Positions 2,044 through 51,570 of a DNA stretch of 64,000 bases are shown one piece after another. Source of the stretch: a virus. How positions within the stretch are numbered: the stretch's first letter is position 1; the number at the start of each line of letters is the position of its first letter. A program made the position numbers and the translations under genes. The notes beneath the pieces are model-generated. The model was not told the origin of the DNA, made no database searches, and saw nothing but the letters and a program-made list of their open reading frames with translations. The stretch lies in the UHGV virus genome UHGV-0390448, one strand, 5' to 3'.

Positions 2044-2912
2044 TCGATCACTCCGTTTTGAGTGGTATCAAAGTTCCTGGCCGGGATGCAGTAATAAAGG
2101 GAACCAACGTGTTGTGTTCCGTAGCTGAAGATTCGATGCACGTACCACCAGCGGCGGGCGAGGCCATTCGCCATTTCTTCGTTCCATTCCAGGATTGAAC
2201 CAACAGGTACGTTGTTTGCAGCAATACGCAGGATTAGCACTTCATCAGCAAGACCATCCTGTTCTCCATCGGCATCAATGGCATGAAACGAATCCCTTCC
2301 GTCCGGGTTATCCAGGACGTATACGATTTCCGGTTCCAGATAGGTAAGCTCACGCTGGTTGTTGTCCAGTTGCGTGAAAGACTCTTCACCTGTTTCATCG
2401 TTTACGACGCCATAGGTGCCATCAGCCGGGCGATATAAAAGCGCCTCGAATGCGTCAGGGCTTGATTCAATAATGAGCATCCAATCGGCGCGGATCTGGT
2501 CGTTGAACGCTTTGTGTCCGTTATATCGGGTTTTAAGCTGCTGGTTTGGTTGTCTGTTAGCGAGCGATGCCGGTAGGGGGGCGATGTCAGGTTCAATCAC
2601 TTCCGTAACAGAGTCACCAGCATTATCAGGCCAATTATCATGGCGGCTATCTGCTTCGGTGGCAGCGTGTTCTTCCAGAATACTGAATGGCCCTGTACTG
2701 ACCTTCCCATTTTCCGTTGTGCTTCCTTCATTCGCTTCAACCGTCGTTGTCTCTTCTCTCTGCGTGCTGTCATGTTCTGTTCCCTTTCTCATCAGGCTTG
2801 CATCATCAGCAAACCATTCATCAAAACGGCCCATAAGCGTCCTCAAAGGTCGATTTATCAGGTATCGAGGGGCATTGTCAGGAGATTGTGATTTCAATTC
2901 ATATCCCAGCAT
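2040..2912 (-). CDS. Phage protein, acidic, unknown function
   Basis: 290-aa ORF, first gene of the minus-strand block ending at window start. Confidence 0.55.
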   Translation of the reverse strand: MLGYELKSQSPDNAPRYLINRPLRTLMGRFDEWFADDASLMRKGTEHDSTQREETTTVEANEGSTTENGKVSTGPFSILEEHAATEADSRHDNWPDNAGDSVTEVIEPDIAPLPASLANRQPNQQLKTRYNGHKAFNDQIRADWMLIIESSPDAFEALLYRPADGTYGVVNDETGEESFTQLDNNQRELTYLEPEIVYVLDNPDGRDSFHAIDADGEQDGLADEVLILRIAANNVPVGSILEWNEEMANGLARRWWYVHRIFSYGTQHVGSLYYCIPARNFDTTQNGVIE

Positions 2913-2950
2913 GGGACTAAAGTGCTTTACATTGTCCCATATTGGGACTA
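2904..2950. promoter_or_regulatory. TGGGAC-containing inverted and direct repeats upstream of higB; candidate operator
   Basis: atgggac (2911-2917) and gtcccat (2934-2940) form an inverted repeat; ttgggacta repeats at 2942-2950; 30-70 bp upstream of the higB start. Confidence 0.35.
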
Positions 2951-2978
2951 CTATACTTTCAGAGAGAAGGAATCTGTG

Positions 2979-3281
2979 ATGAAAATAATTTCGGTAAAAA
3001 CACTAAGGGATTTCTGGGCGAAGAATCCCGATGCAGAACAGCCATTAAAGGCATGGGTTGATGAAGCAACAAAGGCTGACTGGAAAAATCCGGCTGAGAT
3101 CAAAGAACAGTACCGGACAGCCAGCATCCTTAAAAACAGGCGCGTGGTGTTCAATATTAAGGGAAATGATTACAGGTTAATTGTCGCAATTGCTTATCAG
3201 CGAGGATGGATGTTCGTTAAGTTTATTGGAACACATAAGGAATACGATGCCATTGACGCGGATACAATAGAACTGGAGTAA
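2979..3281 (+). CDS. higB: Type II toxin HigB family (RelE-fold mRNA interferase)
   Basis: About 100-aa product from internal ATG (MKIISVKTLRDFW...), followed 4 nt later by an HTH antitoxin; sequence pattern matches HigB-family toxins from memory. Confidence 0.75.
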   Translation: MKIISVKTLRDFWAKNPDAEQPLKAWVDEATKADWKNPAEIKEQYRTASILKNRRVVFNIKGNDYRLIVAIAYQRGWMFVKFIGTHKEYDAIDADTIELE

Positions 3282-3284
3282 ATC

Positions 3285-3644
3285 ATGAACATTAAACCTA
3301 TCCGTACAGAACAAGATTATGAGGCCGCACTGCGTGCGGTCGAACCGATGTTCGATAACGAACCGGAAATGAACACCCCGGAAGGTGATTTCTTTGAGGT
3401 CATGTGTCTTCTCATTGAGGAGTACGAGAAAAAACATTACCCAATTGAGCCACCATCACCTATTGAAGCCATTAAATTCCGCATGGAACAGCAAGGGCTG
3501 ACCGTGAAGGATCTGGAACCGGCAATTGGTAAGTCAAACCGTGTTTACGAAGTGCTAAATGGAACACGAAATTTAACGTTACCTATGATTCGTCGTTTAC
3601 ATTCCCAGTTTGGCATTCCTCTTGAAAGTTTGGTTGGTGTATGA
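3285..3644 (+). CDS. higA: HigA-family antitoxin, XRE-type HTH in C-terminal half
   Basis: 119 aa; HTH-like segment LTVKDLEPAIGKSNRVYEVLNG; immediately downstream of higB. Confidence 0.75.
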   Translation: MNIKPIRTEQDYEAALRAVEPMFDNEPEMNTPEGDFFEVMCLLIEEYEKKHYPIEPPSPIEAIKFRMEQQGLTVKDLEPAIGKSNRVYEVLNGTRNLTLPMIRRLHSQFGIPLESLVGV

Positions 3645-9791: not shown

Positions 9792-10594
9792 ATTGGCAGC
9801 CTCCTTTGACTAAGTTAAGGAGCTACCGCGTGAGGTTCCAATCTCAATGGCGGTAGCACTGACTGGGTTGGAACTACCGGCGTCAAAGGGAACCGGCCTG
9901 CCTTTCGGCAGCCCAGCCAGCACTACCATTGATCTCTGAGCTAAACGCTAAGTATGGCTGTGCGATGGCATGACACAAAAAAAGACGCTTTCGGCGTCTG
10001 TGTCGCCTTTGACATTATCCGGGGTTCCAATCCCGGCACCCGTTTTTCTAAGGTGCCGTAGAAATATACCCCACGATAATGCCTGGGCGCAACAGTCTGT
10101 ATTTTTATGCTTTGGAGGATTTCTTCCGGGCTTGTTTGCAAGCGTAGGCCATTGCTTTAGCTTTCACTTCATCCAGCTTTCCGGTGATCACTTCTTTTCC
10201 GAGAGTGACAAACCAGTCATAGCAACCGCCAGTGATGTTCTGGATTTGAAAGTTGAGGTAGCGAACGGTCATTTTGACACCCCCAGCGCGAGTAAAGAAT
10301 GCAGATTATCGCGTGAGTGGCGGACAATGAGTGATGGGGAAAGACAGTAGTTGTTCATAGTGTAGTGACTCCTTGCTTTCGGAGCCGCCATCGACTGTTC
10401 CACGGTCTGGTGGCGGCGCAATAAAGGCTGGAACACCGTGAGTCAACGGGGGCTTTTCAGCCACCTATATTGCACCGCCATTGGTATGGCGGCGGCAATC
10501 ATACGAAAAACCAAACGGTTTGTCTCAAAAAGTTGACCGGTGTACCAATCGGTTGTGAATGTACAACGGTGAATTTCACAATTCAACTTAAAAT

Positions 10595-33700: not shown

Positions 33701-35064
33701 TAGTCATCCTCCGGCTGGTCTATCGCAATCTCGTCATCTACAGCATCAAAACCGGTATCCCCCGCGTCATAATCACCGTAGATATCAGCCGTGGCGGAAG
33801 GGTCTATATTCAGGTCTTCATCATTGGCCTCAAATTCACCGGCTTTACGTTCTCCGTTCCGGTCGTAATCCCCCATCCCAAGCCTATCAACGATTTTCGC
33901 TACTTCAGCCCGGCGTTGTGCAAGCCATTGTGGGAGTCCAGCTTGTTGCTCGGCAAACTGCTTCGCCTCTTTATCCAGTTGCTCATCATCAACATCGTTA
34001 ACGTCAGAAACCGGAGGCTCCAGAAGTGAGATCGCTTTTGCCGCTCGTGCCGCCAGGATAGCCGGGACACTGACGCCCTGCCGCTCGATATATTCAGCAA
34101 CGCCTATATCGTCCAGCTCCTCGCGCTCACGCATACGTATAGCGGCGGCGATAACTCTGGCGGCGCGTGCGTCAGCGCCAATGCGATACTCAATCTCTTT
34201 GCCACGCTGCTCGGCTTGCAGGCGAGTAATCGCCAGTTTTTCTCTGGCCTCAGCCTCTCTGAATGCCTGCTGGCGCGCGCCCTGCGCAAGTTTTTCATCC
34301 CCCTGGCGTAGCTTCTGCTCGGTCTGGTAGATGGCAGCCAACCTACTGATAAAGTCATTCATGTAGTAGGCCGCATCGCTTATTAGGCCGAGAAGACGCT
34401 GCCCTGGGTGCATTCCCTCTGGCTGTGTATCGCCGAGGGCGTCAATCTCTTCCTGTAGTCGTTCCGCTTCCTGGTCAACGATGGCCTGATACTGAATTGC
34501 TCGTTCCTGCGCCATCTGTATCGCAAGTCGTAAATGTTCAGTCGCGCCGTTCTTCATCATCTCACGGGCGACGTTGGTGGCAGGCAAAGTGGCGCTTTGA
34601 GCTGATGAGTCAGGGATCATTTGCAATGATCCCTTGTTTCGTTGGGCTTTTTCGCTGCTTTTAGGGATCATTTCCCCCATTTCATCACAAAATGATCCCC
34701 TTACATCCTTGTGTATCTTATTGTTATTACTTGGCTTTTCTTTGTGATCCGCATTTTGTTTTTGCGGCATGGCGCGGAATCGTCCACCAGCTAACGATTT
34801 GTCAGTTTTTGTAAATTCTGTGCTTTTATCAGCCTTTTTTTGCTCTTTTTTTGGGCTTGTGGCGCTACTTTTTGCGCGCTGTTTTGTACTTTTCCCGGCA
34901 GCCTTAGCTTTCGCTTTAACCTCGTTTTTTTTCATATTGAGATGCTTTCTGGCGGTGTTAAAGCTGAGGTCATGCTGCTCGCAATATTCTTTTATGGTGA
35001 TCCCGGTTTCTTCTCTTAACTCCAGGAACTTAGCTCGATGCGCTTCCCAGTTAATTAACGTCAT
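33700..35064 (-). CDS. pacA: Terminase small subunit (PacA-like); contains pac-like repeats
   Basis: Position upstream of pacB with start-stop overlap; N-terminal HTH-like region; internal GATC repeat cluster. Confidence 0.6.
   Translation of the reverse strand: MTLINWEAHRAKFLELREETGITIKEYCEQHDLSFNTARKHLNMKKNEVKAKAKAAGKSTKQRAKSSATSPKKEQKKADKSTEFTKTDKSLAGGRFRAMPQKQNADHKEKPSNNNKIHKDVRGSFCDEMGEMIPKSSEKAQRNKGSLQMIPDSSAQSATLPATNVAREMMKNGATEHLRLAIQMAQERAIQYQAIVDQEAERLQEEIDALGDTQPEGMHPGQRLLGLISDAAYYMNDFISRLAAIYQTEQKLRQGDEKLAQGARQQAFREAEAREKLAITRLQAEQRGKEIEYRIGADARAARVIAAAIRMREREELDDIGVAEYIERQGVSVPAILAARAAKAISLLEPPVSDVNDVDDEQLDKEAKQFAEQQAGLPQWLAQRRAEVAKIVDRLGMGDYDRNGERKAGEFEANDEDLNIDPSATADIYGDYDAGDTGFDAVDDEIAIDQPEDD
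34612..34700. other. Candidate pac site: four GATC-centred heptamers as two inverted pairs
   Basis: agggatcatt/aatgatccc at about 34612-34633 and again at about 34664-34699, inside pacA; P1 pac is built from Dam-site hexamer repeats within pacA. Confidence 0.45.
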
Positions 35065-35453
35065 AGGGAAGCCTCACGTTTTTTCACAGCGGCGTTCCAT
35101 AGCTGGTTAGTCATCGCCACCAACTGACGCTGCTCCTTTCGTAATTGAGCTTCTATCTTTCGGTTGGTGTTTTTCACCAACAGCCGACCGAATTCAGGAG
35201 TGCGCCCGCGCACCTTGAACTGGTATCCATTCAGGCCATGTAGCCAATATTTCCGGGGGTATACGCGGTCGTCTATTTCGCAAATGGCACGACTGGAACG
35301 AACAAAAAAACGTATGATGTTATTTACGTTTACGCGCGACACATGAAGGTGAGGATATTGTGCTTTTGCACGGCTGGTGATTTCGGTGACCGTCAGATAG
35401 CAGTCAGCCCTGATCATGATATCCGCTATTTCGGCGCTACTGATTTGCTCCAT
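35061..35453 (-). CDS. Hypothetical protein at the position of P1 lpa (late promoter activator); unverified
   Basis: 130 aa immediately upstream of pacA; degenerate operator site upstream. Confidence 0.35.
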   Translation of the reverse strand: MEQISSAEIADIMIRADCYLTVTEITSRAKAQYPHLHVSRVNVNNIIRFFVRSSRAICEIDDRVYPRKYWLHGLNGYQFKVRGRTPEFGRLLVKNTNRKIEAQLRKEQRQLVAMTNQLWNAAVKKREASL

Positions 35454-35530
35454 TTATCCCCCGGATAGAAAAAGACCGAGGGGATGATAATCAGCTTGTT
35501 AATACTGAGAAGACTGTCAAAAACATGATG

Positions 35531-35558
35531 TATTAGAAAATTAATATTAACTTACTAA
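35531..35558. promoter_or_regulatory. Degenerate operator site attagaa-N14-tactaac
   Basis: Same 7-14-7 spacing; upstream of 35061-35453. Confidence 0.4.
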
Positions 35559-35560
35559 CA

Positions 35561-35944
35561 CTACCAGCGGGATAAACGAACAACATGCTTAACTTTTGCC
35601 TCCCACTTCCCTTTATGTTTGTTGATCACCGCCTGCGCCATCTTCAGACTGGCTTCAAAATCGGCTTTTCGACCACTATTGCCCACCAGCAACGCTCCGT
35701 CTATTTCGGGTAAGCATAAGTAATCCTGCTCGACGGTAAGCGGCATTGATGATGTAACCTGGCAGGCTTTCCATCTGAAGCGTATGCGCACACTCCTGAC
35801 TGACATCACGACATAACCTGATATTGTGCTCTTGTGTCCGGCGTCTGTGCGTGTAGCCTTGCATGATGTTATCTTGCAGGTGATGATGTCCCAACCAATG
35901 TGCATCGCATCCTCAATGCGTAATTTAGTAGCCTCGTACATCAA
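35561..35944 (-). CDS. Hypothetical protein
   Basis: ORF only. Confidence 0.45.
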   Translation of the reverse strand: MMYEATKLRIEDAMHIGWDIITCKITSCKATRTDAGHKSTISGYVVMSVRSVRIRFRWKACQVTSSMPLTVEQDYLCLPEIDGALLVGNSGRKADFEASLKMAQAVINKHKGKWEAKVKHVVRLSRW

Positions 35945-36516
35945 AAAACCTCCCAGTCAGTAGCGATAATATCGACACCAGTTGCAAACCAGTCTGTCTG
36001 CGCCTGTAAATCCCCATTCATCATTACCAGGCGAGGCATAACCATCACATCACAACCTTCAACAATATCGAATGCCTCTTCCGGCAGGAATTCGACGAGC
36101 TTTTCTTTGCTGCCAACACTGCCACGGAGCATCGATATATAGCTCCCTTTAGGCCATGATGTTCGCCGGGCATCAAGCCCCTTCATCATCCAGTAAAAGG
36201 CCGATGAGAACGGGATGTTCTTTTTGGCGATGAGCACGTTATTCGCTTCTGTGTACTTCAGGAACTTAACTAACCTTACCATCGACTCGGATAACGCAAT
36301 GTACGGCTCATGATTGATTGCTGACACGCTTACGCCGTGCAGTCCAACACTTACCACTGTCATATCACCGTTCTGTGCGGTTTCGATGTTGACGCCTTTA
36401 CGAACTAACGCTGCATAAAGCTCCTCGCGCTTTTGCGTCCAGCATTCTCGTCGCCCTATAAAGTCACTCAAAACGAGATCATCTTCTGAATACGCGTTAT
36501 CGTTCGCCGTTAACAT
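35941..36516 (-). CDS. Hypothetical protein, possible DUF2829-like C-terminus
   Basis: C-terminal DWFATGVDIIATDWEVF. Confidence 0.45.
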   Translation of the reverse strand: MLTANDNAYSEDDLVLSDFIGRRECWTQKREELYAALVRKGVNIETAQNGDMTVVSVGLHGVSVSAINHEPYIALSESMVRLVKFLKYTEANNVLIAKKNIPFSSAFYWMMKGLDARRTSWPKGSYISMLRGSVGSKEKLVEFLPEEAFDIVEGCDVMVMPRLVMMNGDLQAQTDWFATGVDIIATDWEVF

Positions 36517-36970
36517 AACGTCTCCTTTTTTACACGCGCGACTATCCCCCGGCTGAACCGGTAGTGACGTCGTAAATTCGTATTAATTAAGGGTTACAGC
36601 CTGAGCGGCTATATGATGAATTGAAAGGAGTTGTGGCGGTGGTGCCTCCACCTGCCAGGTTAGCCACGCCCGGCGACGACACTTATCAGAACGTAGTGAA
36701 TGAAAATGGCTTCGTCACGAGCGCATAGCCGCAATTACCACAACGGAGAAGGCGCTCGTATTAATTAAACACCTTTTCCTGTTGTACGCCGTGCTATTCC
36801 GGCTGTCACACCGAATCGCCAGGATGGTGAGTCCCTGAGTCCGCTACCCTACCAACGGTGACTTGCACATTCCGGCTACCTGATGTGCCCATGCAGTGTT
36901 AGTAAGGCACCTAACAGCTACACCAGACCGCTAACGACGCATGTGCCATACGCCGTGTTACAACCAAATG

Positions 36971-37046
36971 TGGTGGCCCCTACCGGACTTGAACCGGTGA
37001 CCGTGCGATTATGAGTCGCCCGCTCTAACCACTGAGCTAAAGGGCC
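36971..37046 (-). tRNA. tRNA with CAU anticodon, most similar to tRNA-Ile2 (lysidine type); Met not excluded
   Basis: Reverse complement GGCCCTTTAGCTCAGTGGTTAGAGCGGGCGACTCATAATCGC...GGTTCAAGTCCGGTAGGGGCCACCA resembles E. coli ileX; CCA encoded. Confidence 0.8.
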
Positions 37047-37063
37047 AGATTACTGTTAATTAC

Positions 37064-37192
37064 GCTTACGCTTTTTGCCAGAACCGCGTAAGGCTTTTGC
37101 CGCTTGCTCTACCCCGTATGCAACCACCAGCAGAAACAATAATGTCCACTCCGGGTTTTTATCGGCAAACGCCCAAAAATCCATCACTTGCA
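37064..37192 (-). CDS. Small membrane peptide (about 42 aa) inside the tRNA operon, candidate
   Basis: aaggtgg RBS 7 nt before ATG; predicted MDFWAFADKNPEWTLLFLLVVAYGVEQAAKALRGSGKKRKRN. Below the ORF-track cutoff. Confidence 0.4.
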
Positions 37193-37474
37193 GCCACCTT
37201 TTAAGACAAACGCCATTGCTGTTAGGTTGCGGTGCCGGGTGCCTCCCGGTGACGTTAACCAGTTAACAATTAACGCCGGATCACTTATGGATTCTCGTTA
37301 CGCCAGTAAAAAGACCACCTTTACTGTTTTAACTGTTCCGCGTGCGCTTAGCCGCATTCACCGCAATGGTAAGAGCATTTGGCTGACTGGGCGGCGATGA
37401 CGCCTGTACGCATTTGGTGATCCGGTTCTGCTTCCGGCATTCGCTTAATTAGCCAAATACTCTTAACGTTGCGA

Positions 37475-37561
37475 TGGCGGAGAGTAATGGAATCGAACCA
37501 TCATCGCTTGGGCGACGGGACGGTTTTCAAGACCGCTTGAGCACCATGCTCCCTACTCTCC
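37475..37561 (-). tRNA. Atypical type-II tRNA, Ser-like (UGA anticodon)
   Basis: Anticodon arm GCGGT-CTTGAAA-ACCGT as in E. coli serT, long variable arm, T-loop TTCGATT, CCA encoded; D-arm non-canonical. Confidence 0.5.
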
Positions 37562-37719
37562 AGTGATTGTGGTGGTCGGTGCTGATCTCCGACTGCGCCT
37601 CTTTTTTTCATAGCCCATAAGGCCGGTCAGTGCGCTTGATGACTGAGGCATCGATATTTACTACGCCGCCTCGTTGCCATAGGGCGGACTTGCGCGCCAG
37701 CAACGCGCATTCACCACAA

Positions 37720-37793
37720 CGGTAAGGGTACTTCGTAGGGATTCGAACCCTCTGCCAAGCACGGCGATCTCCGACGTCGCAAAATACCCTTAC
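37720..37793 (-). other. tRNA-like fragment: perfect T-arm inside a 10-bp inverted repeat, no acceptor pairing or CCA
   Basis: GGTAAGGGTA...AGGG-TTCGAAT-CCCT...TACCCTTACC on the minus strand; cannot be folded into a canonical cloverleaf. Confidence 0.3.
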
Positions 37794-37802
37794 CTGTTGT
37801 GT

Positions 37803-37878
37803 TGGTGCCGGTTAACGGACTCGAACCGCTGACATCCTGCTTACAAGGCAGGCGCTCTACCAACTGAGCTAAACCGGC
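37803..37878 (-). tRNA. tRNA-Thr (UGU)
   Basis: GCCGGTTTAGCTCAGTTGGTAGAGCGCCTGCCTTGTAAGCAGG...GGTTCGAGTCCGTTAACCGGCACCA; canonical cloverleaf. Confidence 0.85.
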
Positions 37879-37882
37879 AATT

Positions 37883-37969
37883 TGGTGGGGAGTGATGGAG
37901 TCGAACCATCCGAGTCGCAATGACAGTAGATTTACAGTCTACCCCGCTACCCCTACGGACTAACTCCCC
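37883..37969 (-). tRNA. Type-II tRNA, Tyr-like (GUA anticodon), atypical D-arm
   Basis: Anticodon arm GTAGA-CTGTAAA-TCTAC, long variable arm, T-arm GATGG-TTCGACT-CCATC, CCA encoded. Confidence 0.55.
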
Positions 37970-37974
37970 TAAAT

Positions 37975-38051
37975 TGGCGATGGTGGGTGGATTCGAACCA
38001 CCGACCGACAGCTTAGAAGGCTGCTGCTCTATCCTACTGAGCTACACCATC
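37975..38051 (-). tRNA. tRNA-Arg (UCU)
   Basis: GATGGTGTAGCTCAGTAGGATAGAGCAGCAGCCTTCTAAGCTG...GGTTCGAATCCACCCACCATCGCCA; resembles E. coli argU. Confidence 0.8.
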
Positions 38052-39366
38052 ACTTGCCGGGTACGTCTCCGGCGAGGGCTTCCACCTCCGTATGCTTTTC
38101 GGCGCACCGCGCCCTGGCTGCAATTCGGTAACAGGGGATACACAACCCTGGCTTCCAGCGTGATTAGCGCCTTCAGCATGACGGGATATACCCGTTACAA
38201 GACATTATTCCAGAAAGCCATTAACCAATGGCTGTTACGCGGGAAGGACGTAACAGGTAAGGGCGCTGACCAGAAAGACCTGACCCTTCTCATTCATCTG
38301 GTTAATCACACCGGCGCCCTTGCCTGTTATGCCTCCCCGTTCCCTAATACACAGACGGGGACACTCTGCGGTCGATTTTTTGACGGGGGACGACTCATAC
38401 CCCGTGGCGTCAGGCTTCTTAGGCCGCTACCATCATCAGATCATCGTTTGCATTTACTTTAATGGTCGGGTTCTAAACCGCCGCAAAGTCGCTAACCATG
38501 ACGAAAACACTGAAAAAACACCCACCCGAAGGTGGGCAAATATCCCACTCGCGGTATTGCCACTTAGGCGTATGGTCAACCTGGCAACTCGGTGTCCTCA
38601 ACGGGGAAGGAATAACCCCGCCATACTTACCGCCGCGCCTGTCGCGGTTATCGCTACGTATCAACATAAAAGCCGACTGCCTGAGCAAGATTCACTTTCA
38701 AAGGCCCGCAGAAAGGAATCCATAGTCGGCTTTTATCTTGAAGCGGCTCTCTCTCCGCCCGTCACCGTCCTATCCCGGTTGTCGCGTTTGCCACGCCAGC
38801 CGTAACGAGGTTTAAAGTCTTTTCACGTTTTCATCACTCGACTGCCGTCTATGGCTGTTCGTTGCAGCGGGGGTGCCTCCCCCTGGGGATATCCCCGGCC
38901 TTACCCCCATTCTTTCAAAACACAATGCAAGGCCACATCCGCATAGGTGCATTACCGCAACGTTAAGGAGACTCAGAGTCAGCAAAATAAGAGGAAAACC
39001 CAACTCTGCGCCTCCTTAACGTTGAGGATGTGCACTGATGATGACCCGATGCAGCCTGGCCCACTTAACATACTCACTGCCAGATCATCATCAATGAACA
39101 CCTTAAAAAGACCTTCCGTGGCTCAAGTCACTGTCGTTTACTCCGTAAAATGCTCTCGCTGAAACCACTTTACGCACTAAACCTGCCGGGCATGTATTTG
39201 CACGGTGCCGGAGCTTTCCCTTACCTTAAAATTTACTTTCTAACACTTAAGTTTGTTTGATGCTGGTGGGGGAAGACAATGAAGTGACTATCAAACCCGC
39301 AAGCGACATGGGAAGCTCCCCACCAGCACGAAAAATTCTATGTTAAGTTAATTCCATAATCAACAT
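38052..39366 (-). other. About 1.3-kb ORF-free, inverted-repeat-rich region between the tRNA cluster and an operator site; candidate transcribed leader or structured ncRNA
   Basis: Only short, overlapping, low-complexity ORFs in all frames; long-range inverted repeats, e.g. acgttaaggag/ctccttaacgt (about 38959-39022), tgatgatga/tcatcatca (about 39036-39095), aaaagccgact/agtcggctttt (about 38670-38733). Confidence 0.25.
39238..39244. promoter_or_regulatory. ttctaac half-site
   Basis: tttactttctaacacttaag. Confidence 0.3.
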
Positions 39367-39394
39367 GTTAGAAAGATAATTTTAGTTTTCTAAC
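39367..39394. promoter_or_regulatory. Operator site gttagaa-N14-ttctaac
   Basis: atgttagaaagataattttagttttctaacac; between the 3' end of 39398-40606 and the ORF-free region; positioned to control minus-strand transcription into the tRNA cluster. Confidence 0.55.
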
Positions 39395-39397
39395 ACA

Positions 39398-40606
39398 TTA
39401 TTTCCCGTAAAGATTTTCAACTCCACCGTTCTTCTTATCCCACTCGTTCGCCCATACCCGGCAAGCATCAATTATTTCCTGACGTCGATCGCCCTGCATG
39501 AACGGAATGCTTTCATGAAAGCTGCTTGGAATGCAGGCCACACTGAACACTGTATCAAACTCAGTCTGCTTGATTGCCTCCAACGTCTCTGGACGCATTT
39601 TCAATTCGTCGATCGGTGCATCCTTAGAGTCCATAATCCGGCGATGTAAGCGTGGAAAATCCGTTTCAAGGTACGCCATAATTTTATCTGCCAGACATTC
39701 GTCTATGTCGGTATTCCAGTCAGTTTCGAAGCCAGGAATTCGGTAGTAAAGCGGCGCTCCCCATACTGACGGGATCACATCCATCGTCAGCAGGCGGCTG
39801 GTTCTGATTTGCTGATGGTAATTTGCCGTCAGCAACGCTTCGCCACGTTGCCCAGTCTCCGCGACCAGACCATGCGGAAACTCATGGATATAGGCAATAG
39901 CTTCTCTTCCGTCATACATTAGCGGGAATGTCTCTGGCCTTTGCCCCATGCCACAGGCGCGATTCAGATCATGACCAAGCTCTGAGCACTCTCGTTTCAA
40001 TGTTTCAATAATGCTCTGCGCCGCTGCTAACTTTTTACGCAGTGTGACGAGTTCGCCTTGATACTCAACGCATTGCTGATTTAGCTTGGTTAAACGCTCT
40101 TTTAGTTCCCGACGCTCTCTTTTCAGCGTGCGGTTATCTTTCTCCGCAACATCCAGTCGTTTTGTCAGGCTTGGCGGATAGTCTTTTTTGTAACGACTCA
40201 AATCGACTTCAGCAGATTTGCGCAGTGTATTTGCCTGCTCAAGACGCGCCTCCAGATTGCCGATCTCATTACGCATATTCGCGGCAAATTGATTAACAGC
40301 ATCCCCCAGGCTTTCAACTGTCGCTGATACACCAGTGACTTGAGAAAAACGGATCAAGCCATCATTAACGGCTTGCTGATATTCCTCAAACTGATCCACC
40401 AGCTTATTGTAATCAACTGCCCCATCATCAAGGAGCTGGTTGATTTCCGCCACCAGGTTATCTGTAGTGGCAATGACGCTCTCATGCAGTCGCTTTGACA
40501 GGTCATCGCCCGGATTTCGTTTCTGTATAAGCGCGATTTGTGTCCGCAGCGTTTCAATTGCGGTTGAGATGATCTCCAGGCTTGATGATTCTACTTGCTG
40601 ACTCAT
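39398..40606 (-). CDS. Hypothetical 402-aa protein, N-terminal coiled coil plus C-terminal globular domain
   Basis: Single-gene unit: half-site upstream, terminator further upstream, full operator site downstream. Confidence 0.55.
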   Translation of the reverse strand: MSQQVESSSLEIISTAIETLRTQIALIQKRNPGDDLSKRLHESVIATTDNLVAEINQLLDDGAVDYNKLVDQFEEYQQAVNDGLIRFSQVTGVSATVESLGDAVNQFAANMRNEIGNLEARLEQANTLRKSAEVDLSRYKKDYPPSLTKRLDVAEKDNRTLKRERRELKERLTKLNQQCVEYQGELVTLRKKLAAAQSIIETLKRECSELGHDLNRACGMGQRPETFPLMYDGREAIAYIHEFPHGLVAETGQRGEALLTANYHQQIRTSRLLTMDVIPSVWGAPLYYRIPGFETDWNTDIDECLADKIMAYLETDFPRLHRRIMDSKDAPIDELKMRPETLEAIKQTEFDTVFSVACIPSSFHESIPFMQGDRRQEIIDACRVWANEWDKKNGGVENLYGK

Positions 40607-40632
40607 GTTTGTTCCCTTTCTTGAAATTAGTT

Positions 40633-40639
40633 TTCTAAC
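40633..40639. promoter_or_regulatory. ttctaac half-site in the promoter region of 39398-40606
   Basis: Minus-strand reading atgttagaaaactaattt, same as the sites at 10595 and 31090. Confidence 0.4.
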
Positions 40640-40682
40640 ATATTTTATTAGTATGCAATTTCAATAAAAAGACTCAGGCAAC

Positions 40683-40709
40683 AAAAAACCCGCCAACTGG
40701 CGGGTTTAT
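40683..40709. terminator. Bidirectional rho-independent terminator
   Basis: aaaaaa-cccgcc-aact-ggcggg-ttt. Confidence 0.6.
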
Positions 40710-40715
40710 GACCGT

Positions 40716-41042
40716 TTAGACGTGTTGGAGTAGCATGTATGCCATATAAATCAAAGCTATCAGTACGACAACTACCTCTGAAATTCTAAGCGCGCGCTTT
40801 ACTATCTGCCGCTCACCGTGGGGTATACCATCCGAGTATTCCTGATCCGTCATTTTCCCCAGCCAGCTTACCGATAACAGAGCTGCATTCTCACTCATCT
40901 CAAGTTCACTTACGGCCTCTCGTATAAGTGGAGCGGTTACTTTCCTGGAAGCAACTTTCATAGTTATGCTTCTGGTTCTTCCGGCGTCATCAGCAAACGT
41001 CAGATTTACGTGGTGTTTTCTGCTCAATGAACAAACTCCCAA
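40716..41042 (-). CDS. Small tail-anchored membrane protein
   Basis: C-terminal TM VVVVLIALIYMAYMLL; real start may be the internal Met (MKVASRK). Confidence 0.4.
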   Translation of the reverse strand: MGVCSLSRKHHVNLTFADDAGRTRSITMKVASRKVTAPLIREAVSELEMSENAALLSVSWLGKMTDQEYSDGIPHGERQIVKRALRISEVVVVLIALIYMAYMLLQHV

Positions 41043-51240: not shown

Positions 51241-51570
51241 AGTTACGGCCTCACTAACAGGTTTAACAACCTGCTACCCGCTGCTAAACAGGTGGCAGGA
51301 CGTGACGGGGTTAGCAGACTGGCGTTAGTGAAACCAGCAGGCCGAAGCCTCCCCATCACGCCCCACCATAATTTGGGCGTAACGCGGTTTTACGGACACA
51401 AAAATACCGCAATATCGGATATCTGCGGTTGTCCGCACTAACATTCAGGCTGCTAAACCCGGTCGCAGAATTTGCTACGACGGCATGAATATAAGCCTGA
51501 ACATTAGAAAGATCAACAGAATTTTTATCAGATGCTGTTTTTTAGTGACGATATAAATCATACATTCTTG

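Follow-up and report, generated by a model that had tools for sequence, protein, structure and literature searches.

In the window, by which is meant the whole 64,000-nt stretch of virus genome UHGV-0390448 that was analysed, five tRNA genes lie on the minus strand, the first of which (Arg-UCU) ends at position 38051. Between this tRNA and a repressor-controlled promoter is a leader (38052-39397, minus strand) that, by comparison of sequences, is the non-coding D6-type counterpart of the leader of the 'ban' operon in phage P1. The Pban/Op72 leader of P1 (68729-69347), which is followed by tRNA-Asn and tRNA-Thr, shares 87% identity with positions 38052-38656 of the window. Comparison of relatives revealed that P1 lacks 38657-39397 and that D6 lacks 38551-38660. 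The features found in the operon are collected in Table 1.

An operator site at 39367-39394 had been named in an earlier note on this DNA, and it was recovered as the palindrome at the head of Table 1. Its motif, TGTTAGAAA, occurs in 14 copies in the window against 0.65 expected and is therefore a genuine dispersed operator motif. At the equivalent position the P1 annotation places the C1-controlled Oban/Op72 operator; the operator sequence here is D6-type, not P1-type. The third copy, inside the transcript, is conserved in all D6-type relatives.

Table 1 Features of the leader and of the adjoining part of the operon, in the direction of transcription (window coordinates).
Feature	Coordinates	Strand	Basis
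Bivalent operator, two inverted TGTTAGAAA half-sites over the -35 region	39364-39397	.	Inverted repeat I8, motif enrichment
Sigma-70-like promoter (TTGATT, 17 nt, TAGAAT), corresponding to Pban of P1	39335-39363	-	Consensus scan, conservation in D6-type relatives, P1 annotation
Long 5' hairpin at predicted transcript start	39260-39329	-	Inverted repeat I6, predicted fold
Operator, third copy, some 90 nt into the transcript	39224-39248 (motif 39237-39245)	-	Direct repeat D1, inverted repeat I4, motif enrichment
Two long hairpins (I2, then I1), D6-lineage-specific	38950-39098	-	Inverted repeats, predicted fold
Conserved block including 'module 2' (core 38760-38859)	38700-38990	-	Alignment with 1-nt indels
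Long hairpin AAAAGCCGACU...AGUCGGCUUUU	38661-38741	-	Inverted repeat I3 (18-nt arms, 94% complementary), conserved in D6-type relatives
Homologue of about 100 nt immediately preceding DicF in the dicBF operons of lambdoid phages	38557-38647	-	Sequence identity
Terminator-like hairpin (8 bp, UUCG loop, then U6)	38513-38540	-	Terminator scan, conserved in P1 and D6
Putative anti-tmRNA arm GUUUUCGUCAUGGUUAGCGACUUUGCGGCGGUUUA	38474-38508	-	Complementary to E. coli ssrA nt 68-104
Whole tmRNA-like module	38324-38508	-	Covariance model R1, built without any P1-like sequence
tmRNA-type tag frame, GCA AAC GAU GAU CUG AUG AUG GUA GCG GCC UAA (ANDDLMMVAA, stop)	38419-38451	-	
Stop-codon-in-loop hairpin (38406-38431), pseudoknot a (38371-38405), pseudoknot b (38334-38368)	38334-38431	-	Covariation count
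Long bracket stem S1, ACAGGCAAGGGCGCC...GGCGCCCUUACCUGU, with variable insert	38251-38329	-	Inverted repeat I5
Hairpin series up to the first tRNA	38052-38250	-	Comparison of relatives
TL unit (bracketed, tRNA-like; 37714-37801) and terminal minihelix unit (37563-37713)	37562-37802	-	T-loop motif

The leader as a mosaic of structured modules

The earlier note had seen no convincing ORF in the leader, and the coding tests agreed with it. None of the six longest ORFs of 38052-39397 has a Pfam match, and an ORF conserved across the region was found in no relative and is missing from the curated annotation of P1, although automated annotation calls small hypothetical ORFs here in some relatives. 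The single PHROG match in the region (phrog_27020, unknown function) is to a plus-strand ORF antisense to the operon, which is not intact in P1. Indels of 1, 2, 3, 4 and 6 nt among the aligned relatives argue that the region is not coding.

Against dinucleotide shuffles the minimum-free-energy z value was -3.6 both for 38990-39335 and for 38660-39000, and -2.0 for 38052-38545, folded without pseudoknots. The inverted repeats listed in the earlier note were located as I1 (38942-38979/39003-39040), I2 (39022-39044/39085-39107), I3 (38661-38678/38724-38741) and GGGGGAGGCACCCCC (38869-38883), and the comparative check disclosed compensatory changes in relatives at several stems. Neither at gathering nor at permissive thresholds did Rfam searches assign the region to a family, and a weak match to tmRNA_permuted served as a lead rather than a classification. 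For GOLLD, ROOL or any other large RNA there was no match at E <= 10 over 38040-39410 or at E <= 1 over 35000-41000.

Because the modules are present or absent separately in relatives and are common separately to unrelated phages (lambdoid, Uetakevirus-like and others), the region, as judged from these alignments, is a chain or mosaic of structured-RNA modules, each gained or lost independently, and neither one RNA nor a set of dead genes. At the promoter-proximal end, D6-type relatives retain the stem of the long 5' hairpin, having GGGCG/CGCCC where the window has GGGG/CCCC. Hairpin I1 differs between the window and the D6 types by two compensatory changes (CAACGUU/AACGUUG to CAACAUU/AAUGUUG, and CAGAG/CUCUG to UAGGG/CCCUG). 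The block at 38700-38990 is about 97% identical between the window and the D6 types, and the core of 'module 2' within it is common to a Pantoea P1-like plasmid, Klebsiella phage Kp4865-1 and 64 IMG/VR contigs. 'Module 2' has one hairpin with 4 of 5 pairs covarying and no Rfam match. It was considered as a second tag template (ANGKGR and a stop in some phages) and rejected, the first codon and the stop not being conserved in D6-type copies.

The segment at 38557-38647, which is missing from D6, shares 91-93% identity with phage mEp460 and with Stx2a/PPompW phages, and its P1 equivalent is annotated as a 'dicF-like region'. It contains two compensated hairpins (CGGGG/CCCCG versus CUGGG/CCCAG, and UUGCCA/UGGCAA versus UUGUCA/UGACAA). 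In the lambdoid phages the Rfam match to DicF lies directly 3' of the homologous segment, scoring 76.7 bits in each of the two loci L004 and L005. The likeness thus covers the segment directly 5' of DicF, followed at the same relative place by a terminator-bearing hairpin; it does not extend to DicF itself, since the 52-nt model RF00039 had no match in the window or in P1 at E <= 10, nor to the gene that follows, which is dicB in the lambdoid loci, whereas here the tmRNA-like module and the tRNAs come next. The DicF-5'-flank segment with its own terminator, 'module 2' and the lineage-specific hairpins are probably separate small RNAs or elements of processing or stability.

On the side of the tRNAs, stem S1 is found also in T1-like arrays with covarying sequence and different inserts, and the window, P1 and an SJ46-like relative each have a stem of their own in the hairpin at 38216-38233. 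Among these three and D6 the block at 38052-38195 is nearly invariant (about 99% identity). Further along the same operon, outside the leader and between tRNA-Thr and tRNA-Ser, are the TL and terminal units, with a T-loop motif that is not called as a tRNA by ARAGORN.

The tmRNA-like module and its antisense arm

The most interesting content of the leader, and one that the earlier note had not foreseen, is a tmRNA-like module with an anti-tmRNA arm. Covariance model R1 matched the window copy over its full length (101 bits, E 2e-35), and the tag part of this model matches the tag region of real ssrA. The Rfam tmRNA models, RF00023 and the permuted forms RF01849-51 and RF04321, score far under their gathering thresholds, the best matches being 24.1 bits against 47 for tmRNA_permuted on the window and 23.8 bits against 84 for beta_tmRNA on another module-bearing locus (L045).

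The tag frame is preceded by UAAAU (38452-38456), and the resume context UAAAU-GCA is invariant in the family. Eighteen variants of the tag peptide were collected, each of 10 codons and fitting the pattern ANDxxxx[AVM][AV]A. In the last position Ala is specified by all four of its codons, and UAA, UGA and UAG all serve as the stop, at a fixed position. Third codon positions are the most variable ones in the tag, and codon statistics are coding-like. The frame has neither a Shine-Dalgarno (SD) sequence nor an in-frame AUG.

RNAalifold on MAFFT alignments recovered little, owing to pseudoknots and misalignment, and a hand-drawn structure was tested in place. Across 66 sequences, compensatory change was found at 20 of its 38 pairs; none of 500 shuffles reached the observed values, and slid controls were much lower. 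It is helices 4-9 that covary, while the 5' hairpins of the module have little covariation. Upstream of the resume codon just one hairpin could be drawn (CUUUG...CAAAG), with pairs that are near-invariant or, in some lineages, broken.

The module shares with tmRNA (ssrA), and especially with the coding piece of its two-piece (permuted) forms, the GCA Ala resume codon with U-A at -5/-4, the ANDx...AA tag of 10 codons, the placing of the stop codon in the loop of a hairpin (analogue of helix 5) and H-type pseudoknots downstream. It differs from tmRNA in having no acceptor stem with G3:U70, no T-arm and no CCA, in apparently carrying a hairpin and an antisense arm in place of pseudoknot 1, and in being encoded by phages and not at cellular ssrA loci. 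ARAGORN reported no tmRNA in the window at default settings and nonsense calls only at relaxed ones, nor any standard or permuted tmRNA in 128 module-bearing loci, and a scan for T-loop motifs inside 38052-39397 was negative. Two candidate acceptors were rejected: the downstream tRNA, whose identity varies (Asn, Arg, Met, Gly, Ser, Lys and others) and which has no G3:U70, the neighbouring tRNAs having U3:A70; and the bracket stem with an encoded CCA, the CCA not being conserved across variants. The module looks like the message part of a tmRNA without the alanine-accepting tRNA-like domain.

The invariant 5' 35 nt of the module are antisense to nt 68-106 of E. coli tmRNA, with 29-32 Watson-Crick pairs. 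Besides the 3' strand of pseudoknot 1 and the linker, this target takes in the resume codon together with tag codons 1-5. RNAduplex on whole sequences returned meaningless full-length duplexes and was replaced by Watson-Crick local alignment against dinucleotide shuffles, with E. coli ssrA as the only target sequence. The window arm scored 16.5, compared with a maximum of 15 in 1000 shuffles; in four lineages, the window included, the match had p = 0/1000, and in three others 0.004-0.007. The best match fell on ssrA 68-106 in 90 of 91 variants, and in all 91 host tmRNA was matched better than the module's own tag region. Pairing covers exactly those blocks that are invariant, GUUUUCG, GCGAC, UUUGCGG and UUUUUA, and the variable nucleotides lie in a bulge. 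In an energy-based comparison with mononucleotide shuffles the short arm by itself did not reach significance (z -0.2 to -2.3), and parts of the arm can also fold as local hairpins. Docking helix and resume codon are about 21 nt apart in the phage module, versus about 11 nt in host tmRNA. The 5' part of the module had also been aligned by eye as a homologue of the tmRNA 5' end (14/21, ungapped), a reading superseded by the far stronger and statistically supported antisense match.

Distribution of the module family

The module was found in at least 120 IMG/VR viral contigs, forming 67 clusters at 92% identity, from unrelated groups of enterobacterial phages; its members belong to phages of Enterobacterales or to unassigned contigs. 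Copies 70-85% identical occupy ORF-free gaps in phages of the Ackermannviridae, Schitoviridae and Drexlerviridae and in Klebsiella phage-plasmids. The flanks differ among unrelated phages, some copies having no tRNA within 1.5 kb. A pattern search of 100,044 species-representative genomes gave true matches only in enterobacterial records carrying the same module, within a P1-like leader or a T1-like array, with the exception of one P1-like fragment in a MAG labelled Bacillota; none was inside an ARAGORN-called tmRNA gene. Literature searches on dicF-like regions, phage tmRNA, tmRNA-like RNAs, tag peptides and anti-tmRNA returned no description of this family, which is apparently undescribed so far.

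Possible roles of the module

Two readings that concern the region as a whole can be given little weight. That the leader consists of decayed protein-coding genes, as the earlier note had allowed in speaking of degenerated gene remnants, would suit the small annotated ORFs and the phrog_27020 match, but the broken state of that ORF in P1, the want of any Pfam match, the 1-2 nt indels within conserved blocks and the covarying stems, which favour RNA structure over decayed genes, make it the least credible explanation of all. Hardly more credible is one large ornate RNA of the GOLLD/ROOL type. Of the large structured RNA that the note had suggested, the structure-rich and non-coding character and the place beside tRNAs hold, and these features are shared with GOLLD and ROOL, as is probable co-processing with the tRNAs; a single 1.3-kb fold does not, given the negative Rfam searches, the terminator-like hairpin in the middle of the region and parts that come and go separately. 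GOLLD and ROOL belong moreover to another host lineage and are single large folds, in contrast to a modular leader related to tmRNA. Species 1 and 2 of phage T4, small stable RNAs from its tRNA cluster, are comparable in being structured, non-coding and encoded beside phage tRNAs. It also seems improbable that this is an ordinary operon leader acting in cis on the tRNA/ban transcript, by attenuation or through RNase sites, with an incidental likeness to tmRNA. Its promoter-proximal position, internal terminator and extra operator copies, and the lineage-specific nature of some parts, are what such a leader would have; yet the module recurs in unrelated phages among other flanking genes, in some cases away from any tRNA, and there is selection on its antisense arm as well as on the tag frame and the pseudoknots.

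The remaining alternatives accept the kinship with tmRNA. In an unrecognised two-piece tmRNA the module would be the coding piece, and the acceptor piece, which would pair with it and be charged, would also be encoded by the phage, whether as the T-arm-bearing TL unit, as the terminal minihelix or at some other place in its genome. The tag region is indeed closest to betaproteobacterial two-piece tmRNA, and the T-loop-bearing TL and terminal units accompany the module in P1/D6-like phages and in some T1-like contigs. TL, however, has no G3:U70 and no free acceptor end, most of its copies have no encoded CCA, and in a strict motif search it is missing from most module-bearing loci, 68 of the 128 lacking all three motifs; with no ARAGORN tmRNA in any of the 128, this reading is rather unlikely, if a little less so than the ordinary leader. 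A pure antisense inhibitor or sponge has a more appreciable though still modest probability. Pairing would then shut off both tagging and rescue, and the body of the module would go undecoded, serving as a mimic that binds S1, the SmpB tail or RNase R, or as a stabiliser. Antisense complementarity is the best-supported functional feature, the module has no tRNA-like domain, and release mediated by tmRNA in cell-free systems is suppressed by synthetic oligonucleotides antisense to it (PMC3384345). Such an inhibitor leaves unexplained the constant 10 codons, the terminal Ala given by four synonymous codons, a stop that changes its identity but never its position, and the invariant UAAAU-GCA context.

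The best explanation, held as a whole with middling confidence, is that a D6-like, P1-related phage-plasmid transcribes leftward a tRNA operon under repressor control, the leader of which is a chain of modules, and that one of these would dock on host tmRNA and either block its tag template or, more likely, replace it. According to this explanation, the operon transcript would be cut at tRNAs and stems, releasing the module RNA; since the terminator-like hairpin lies directly upstream, expression would need read-through or processing. The arm may then pair in cells with host tmRNA, as its computed complementarity would allow, and pairing would hide the host tag template, an occlusion in line with the suppression of tmRNA action by anti-tmRNA oligonucleotides in vitro (PMC3384345). 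Those oligonucleotides, which are employed for cell-free translation and for ribosome display, share with the module antisense pairing that suppresses trans-translation but are artificial DNA, whereas the arm would be a natural, conserved RNA domain joined to a replacement template. In the last and least certain step, proposed because of the coding-type constraint on the tag frame, the phage template would be tethered to the charged tRNA-like domain of the host and SmpB, so that rescued ribosomes would add a tag specified by the phage instead of ANDENYALAA. The module having no tRNA-like domain, decoding would therefore require an unprecedented bimolecular tmRNA. Only tentatively, then, is a 'tmRNA hijacker' proposed for P1/D6 phage-plasmids and T1-like, N4-like, Vi1-like and SSU5-like phages, in which docking over about 30 bp would create a bimolecular tmRNA with a phage template and tags ending in …MVAA, …LMAA or …LAVA.

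Other relatives of tmRNA are encoded by phages, namely the 'TLD-only' RNA of mycobacteriophage DS6A and the full tmRNAs of Bxz1-like phages and of Bacillus phage G, and the DS6A-type RNA has been proposed to interfere with host trans-translation (PMC4131195, PMC11915505). DS6A has the tRNA-like domain alone; the present family, with other hosts and phage groups, would be its mirror image, a message domain alone plus an antisense arm. The literature open to search contained no report of a natural RNA that antagonises or re-programmes tmRNA.

Trans-translation by tmRNA and SmpB is the main bacterial pathway of ribosome rescue and quality control, and a drug target. The module suggests, from sequence comparison, that phages tamper with ribosome rescue. 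If confirmed, a phage RNA that pairs with the host tag template and brings its own tag frame would be a new layer of host takeover and a counterpart of the DS6A RNA, and the non-coding DNA next to phage tRNA genes, long without explanation, would acquire a function, in the classic phage P1 too. Attempts to inhibit tmRNA by antisense, or to re-code it, would have a natural design to follow, and tmRNA searches requiring a tRNA-like domain would be missing a whole family. Should the hijacker be real, the tags on proteins from stalled ribosomes would be chosen by the phage, and the fate of these proteins would be altered during infection.

Composition of the leader upstream of the tRNA genes

The window represents an Escherichia phage-plasmid, a D6-like relative of phage P1. 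Its region 38052-39397, directly 5' of the tRNA genes, is matched over its full length by approximately 100 plasmids of E. coli, E. marmotae and Salmonella; phage D6 gives an 88% match, and P1, P7 and SJ46 match the first 605 bases at approximately 87%. As ARAGORN placed all five tRNA genes on the minus strand, the region is transcribed from 39397 to 38052. In P1, the homologous segment is flanked by the C1-controlled promoter Pban (operator Op72) on one side and tRNA-Asn/tRNA-Thr on the other; its sole annotation is a 'dicF-like region'. In the window, a sigma-70-like promoter lies beneath a palindrome of two TGTTAGAAA half-sites. The occurrence of TGTTAGAAA at 14 sites in the whole window, against 0.65 expected, marks it as the probable dispersed operator of the phage's C1-type repressor; TGTTAGAAA differs from the P1 operator consensus.

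The earlier note had described this leader as lacking a convincing ORF and containing long-range inverted repeats. This description is confirmed: all four repeats named there were found, and no ORF is credible, the Pfam search of six candidates in 38052-39397 giving no match. Indels among relatives are of 1, 2, 3, 4 and 6 nt, hence not only multiples of three, and those of 1 nt occur even within the best-conserved block. The only PHROG match, phrog_27020 (unknown function), was to an ORF on the plus strand, which runs antisense to the operon; this ORF is broken in P1 and probably reflects an error of automated annotation. The three thirds of the region are predicted to fold better than dinucleotide shuffles (z of -3.6, -3.6 and -2.0), and hairpin pairing is preserved among relatives via compensatory changes. 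The earlier reading is partly supported: it holds for a non-coding, structured RNA but not for one large RNA. The region is a mosaic of modules, with contents that are more specific, and more of a surprise, than had been anticipated.

D6 lacks 38551-38660, which the window has in common with P1 and lambdoid phages, and P1 has no counterpart at all of window 38657-39397. Identity between the window and D6 types is 70-80% in the promoter-proximal 400 nt and approximately 97% in the block 38700-38990. The stretch of about 145 nt directly 5' of the first tRNA (38052-38195) is approximately 99% identical among P1, D6, an SJ46-like contig and the window, against approximately 87% for the remaining shared leader. 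A 45-codon minus-strand ORF spans 38052-38195 into the tRNA, with only two differences from P1, both non-synonymous.

The Rfam DicF model matched lambdoid phages directly downstream of the segment shared with the window and found no match in the window or in P1, so the 'dicF-like' label of P1 denotes the 5' flank of DicF and not DicF itself. Module 2, which includes one covarying hairpin and matched no Rfam family, is a second non-coding element that is shared horizontally; its carriers are mostly Uetakevirus-like phages of approximately 40 kb, where it occupies ORF-free gaps of approximately 800 nt.

Features of the leader and its surroundings (window positions unless a comparison locus is named)
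Feature	Position	Strand	Remarks
Sigma-70-like promoter	39363->39335	-	beneath palindrome of two TGTTAGAAA half-sites
TGTTAGAAA sites, examples of 14	10594, 11225/11246, 39237, 39366/39387, 40632, 41687		
Third leader copy of TGTTAGAAA	39237-39245		
Module 2 core	38760-38859		common to a Pantoea plasmid, Klebsiella phage Kp4865-1 and 64 IMG/VR contigs
Module 2, comparison loci	L145 7584-8383; L130 2501-2613; L131		
DicF-flank module	38557-38647		91-93% identity to ~100 nt 5' of DicF in lambdoid dicBF operons
Terminator-like hairpin	38513-38540		with U6 run
Core module	38324-38508	-	tmRNA-like
Arm	38474-38508	-	5' end of core module
Tag frame	38419-38451	-	10 codons
Bracket stem S1	38251-38329		
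Bracketed tRNA-like unit (TL)	37714-37801	-	long stem around hairpin GCGACGUCGGAGAUCGC and T-arm-like GGCAGAGGGUUCGAAUCCCUAC
Terminal minihelix	within 37562-37802	-	ends CACCACAAUCAC, 2 nt 5' of tRNA-Ser

Neighbouring RNA units and other loci

Two further units, TL and the terminal minihelix, lie on the minus strand at 37562-37802, between tRNA-Thr and tRNA-Ser; ARAGORN called neither a tRNA. Both occur in P1, D6 and SJ46, and they flank the core module in the arrays of T1-like phages. Recurrent copies of a bracket stem, ACAGGyAAGrG.../...CyCUUaCCGU, covary in sequence and enclose different inserts; S1 is one of them. TL, the minihelix and the bracket stems may be processing stems or partners. 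In P1 (2807-3376), the annotated genes upl and plp, of unknown functions, run antisense over the conserved TL and terminal units, plp also overlapping tRNA-Thr; both may be ORF calls made in error on non-coding RNA.

The window has Arg(UCU) as its first tRNA (37975-38051), where D6 and P1 (3425-3500) have Asn(GUU); the acceptor stem, GAUGGUG/CACCAUC, is identical in the two and the T arms are similar, a pattern resembling an exchange of the anticodon arm. The D6 RefSeq record (2795-3500) annotates three tRNAs on the strand opposite to that of ARAGORN, with equal coordinates. An STnc100-like match below the Rfam threshold lies inside the tRNA operon (37171-37386). Elsewhere, at 9846-10056 and 51288-51494, two C4 antisense RNAs, an isrK-like RNA and a c4-a1b1 target element were matched at Rfam gathering level, indicating two immunity-type antisense loci in one window.

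The core module across phages

In a sensitive DNA search, window 38316-38513 had counterparts, at 70-85% conservation, in the non-coding gaps of phages that are unrelated, namely Erwinia phiEa2809 (Ackermannviridae), E. coli Bp4/ECBP1 (Schitoviridae), Cronobacter CS01 (Drexlerviridae) and Serratia and Klebsiella phages, as well as in 110-kb Klebsiella plasmids. A 23-nt pattern located the module in at least 120 contigs of IMG/VR, which group into 67 clusters at 92% identity. In a set of 100,044 species-representative genomes, true pattern matches were confined to enterobacterial records bearing the module, surrounded by a P1-like leader or a T1-like array, with one further match in a P1-like fragment of a MAG labelled Bacillota; none fell inside an ARAGORN-called tmRNA gene. 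A covariance model of 38 sequences, P1-like ones excluded, recovered the window copy at full length (101 bits, E 2e-35). In five T1-like IMG/VR contigs (L079, L045, L015, L088, L091), viewed from -250 to +350 relative to the tag, the module is embedded in a non-coding array of approximately 600 nt that begins right behind a terminator-like hairpin; the array units are bracketed by one inverted repeat, GGUAAGAGCAUU ... CAGUGCUCUUUCC, and their order differs by phage.

The lead was a weak Rfam match (24 bits) to permuted tmRNA, from GCAAACGAUGAUCUGAUGAUGGUAGCGGCCUAA, which encodes ANDDLMMVAA and a stop. The family has 35 nucleotide and 18 peptide versions of this tag (e.g. ANDDVVLMAA, ANDDLMLMAA, ANEEMYLAVA, ANDEQFLAVA, ANDNEFKVAA), each of exactly 10 codons. 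The last is always Ala, with all four synonymous codons in use, and a stop occupies codon 11 in every version (UAA 33, UGA 1, UAG 1). Variation is highest at third codon positions, and stops in the two alternative frames are scattered in position. In the context UAAAU/GCA, the U and A at -5/-4 are kept; in tmRNA, these nucleotides matter for frame choice.

A hand-drawn structure with a stop-codon-in-loop hairpin and two H-type pseudoknots was evaluated on 66 sequences: 88.9% of cells were paired and 20 of the 38 pairs had compensatory changes, values that none of 500 shuffles reached, slid controls being much lower. The tag part of the covariance model matched the tag region of E. coli ssrA, the host tmRNA gene (E 0.003), and the Rfam betaproteobacterial two-piece tmRNA model aligned to a T1-like copy (E 2e-5, small search). 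From these comparisons, the core module looks like the message part of tmRNA.

That the module is itself a tmRNA was ruled out: ARAGORN detected neither a standard nor a permuted tmRNA in the 128 core-module loci, a scan of the region found no T-loop motif, and the same-strand tRNAs often present 3' of the module differ in identity between loci, about half of which have none within 1.5 kb. The phage tmRNAs in tmRNA database papers are only those of mycobacteriophages and Bacillus phage G and the 'TLD-only' RNA of DS6A (PMC4131195; PMC11915505), and literature searches on the tag peptides and on allied phrases gave no description of the family.

The antisense arm and its possible action

In the 5' region of the core module only GUUUUCG, GCGAC, UUUGCGG and UUUUUA are fully invariant. 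When the module was aligned locally, by Watson-Crick pairs only, with the reverse complement of E. coli ssrA, these blocks fell on ssrA nt 68-106, UAAAAAGCCGCAAAAAAUAGUC|GCAAACGACGAAAACUA. This site takes in the 3' strand of pseudoknot 1 and the linker, followed by the resume codon (nt 90) with codons 1-5. Scores were 21 (L033), 20.5 (T1-like L079), 16.5 (window), 15.5 (L021), 15 (Klebsiella plasmid L009) and 13 (both Bp4 and phiEa2809), and 1000 dinucleotide shuffles of ssrA gave a mean of approximately 9 and maxima of 13-16.5; p was 0 in four lineages and 0.004-0.007 in three. The same site was mapped for 90 of 91 unique variants, the remaining one lacking the 5' region, and the mean score was 17.2 with host tmRNA versus 7.3 with the module's own tag region, the host being higher in all 91. 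The 29 pairs of the window arm (GUUUUCGUC/GACGAAAAC, GUU/AAC, GCGAC/GUCGC, UUUGCGGC/GCCGCAAA, UUUA/UAAA) loop out host AAAUA (nt 82-86), and the lineage-variable nucleotides (AC, AUG, AGA, AAC) are exactly at bulge positions. As a caveat, when the short arm was tested by itself on the basis of energy, the result did not reach significance. At the sequence level, these data establish a family of conserved, structured phage RNAs, in which coding-type constraint acts on the tag frame and the arm is complementary to the template region of host tmRNA.

In the most likely mode of action, the operon transcript would be cut at the tRNAs and stems, and the arm would base-pair with host tmRNA, concealing its resume codon and opening pseudoknot 1; synthetic anti-tmRNA oligos suppress tmRNA action in vitro (PMC3384345). 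The host Ala-tRNA-like domain with SmpB would enter the stalled ribosome and, because the tag frame looks decoded, the tethered phage template would then be read, yielding a phage-specified tag. This full template swap is proposed with low confidence, and pairing that would only inhibit the host tmRNA, with no swap, is given the same low confidence. The remaining probability is divided among an acceptor piece that went unrecognised, roles solely in cis and other explanations.

In one IMG/VR contig (L120) the tag and pseudoknots are kept and an unrelated sequence replaces the antisense arm. This natural variant could show whether the arm is needed.
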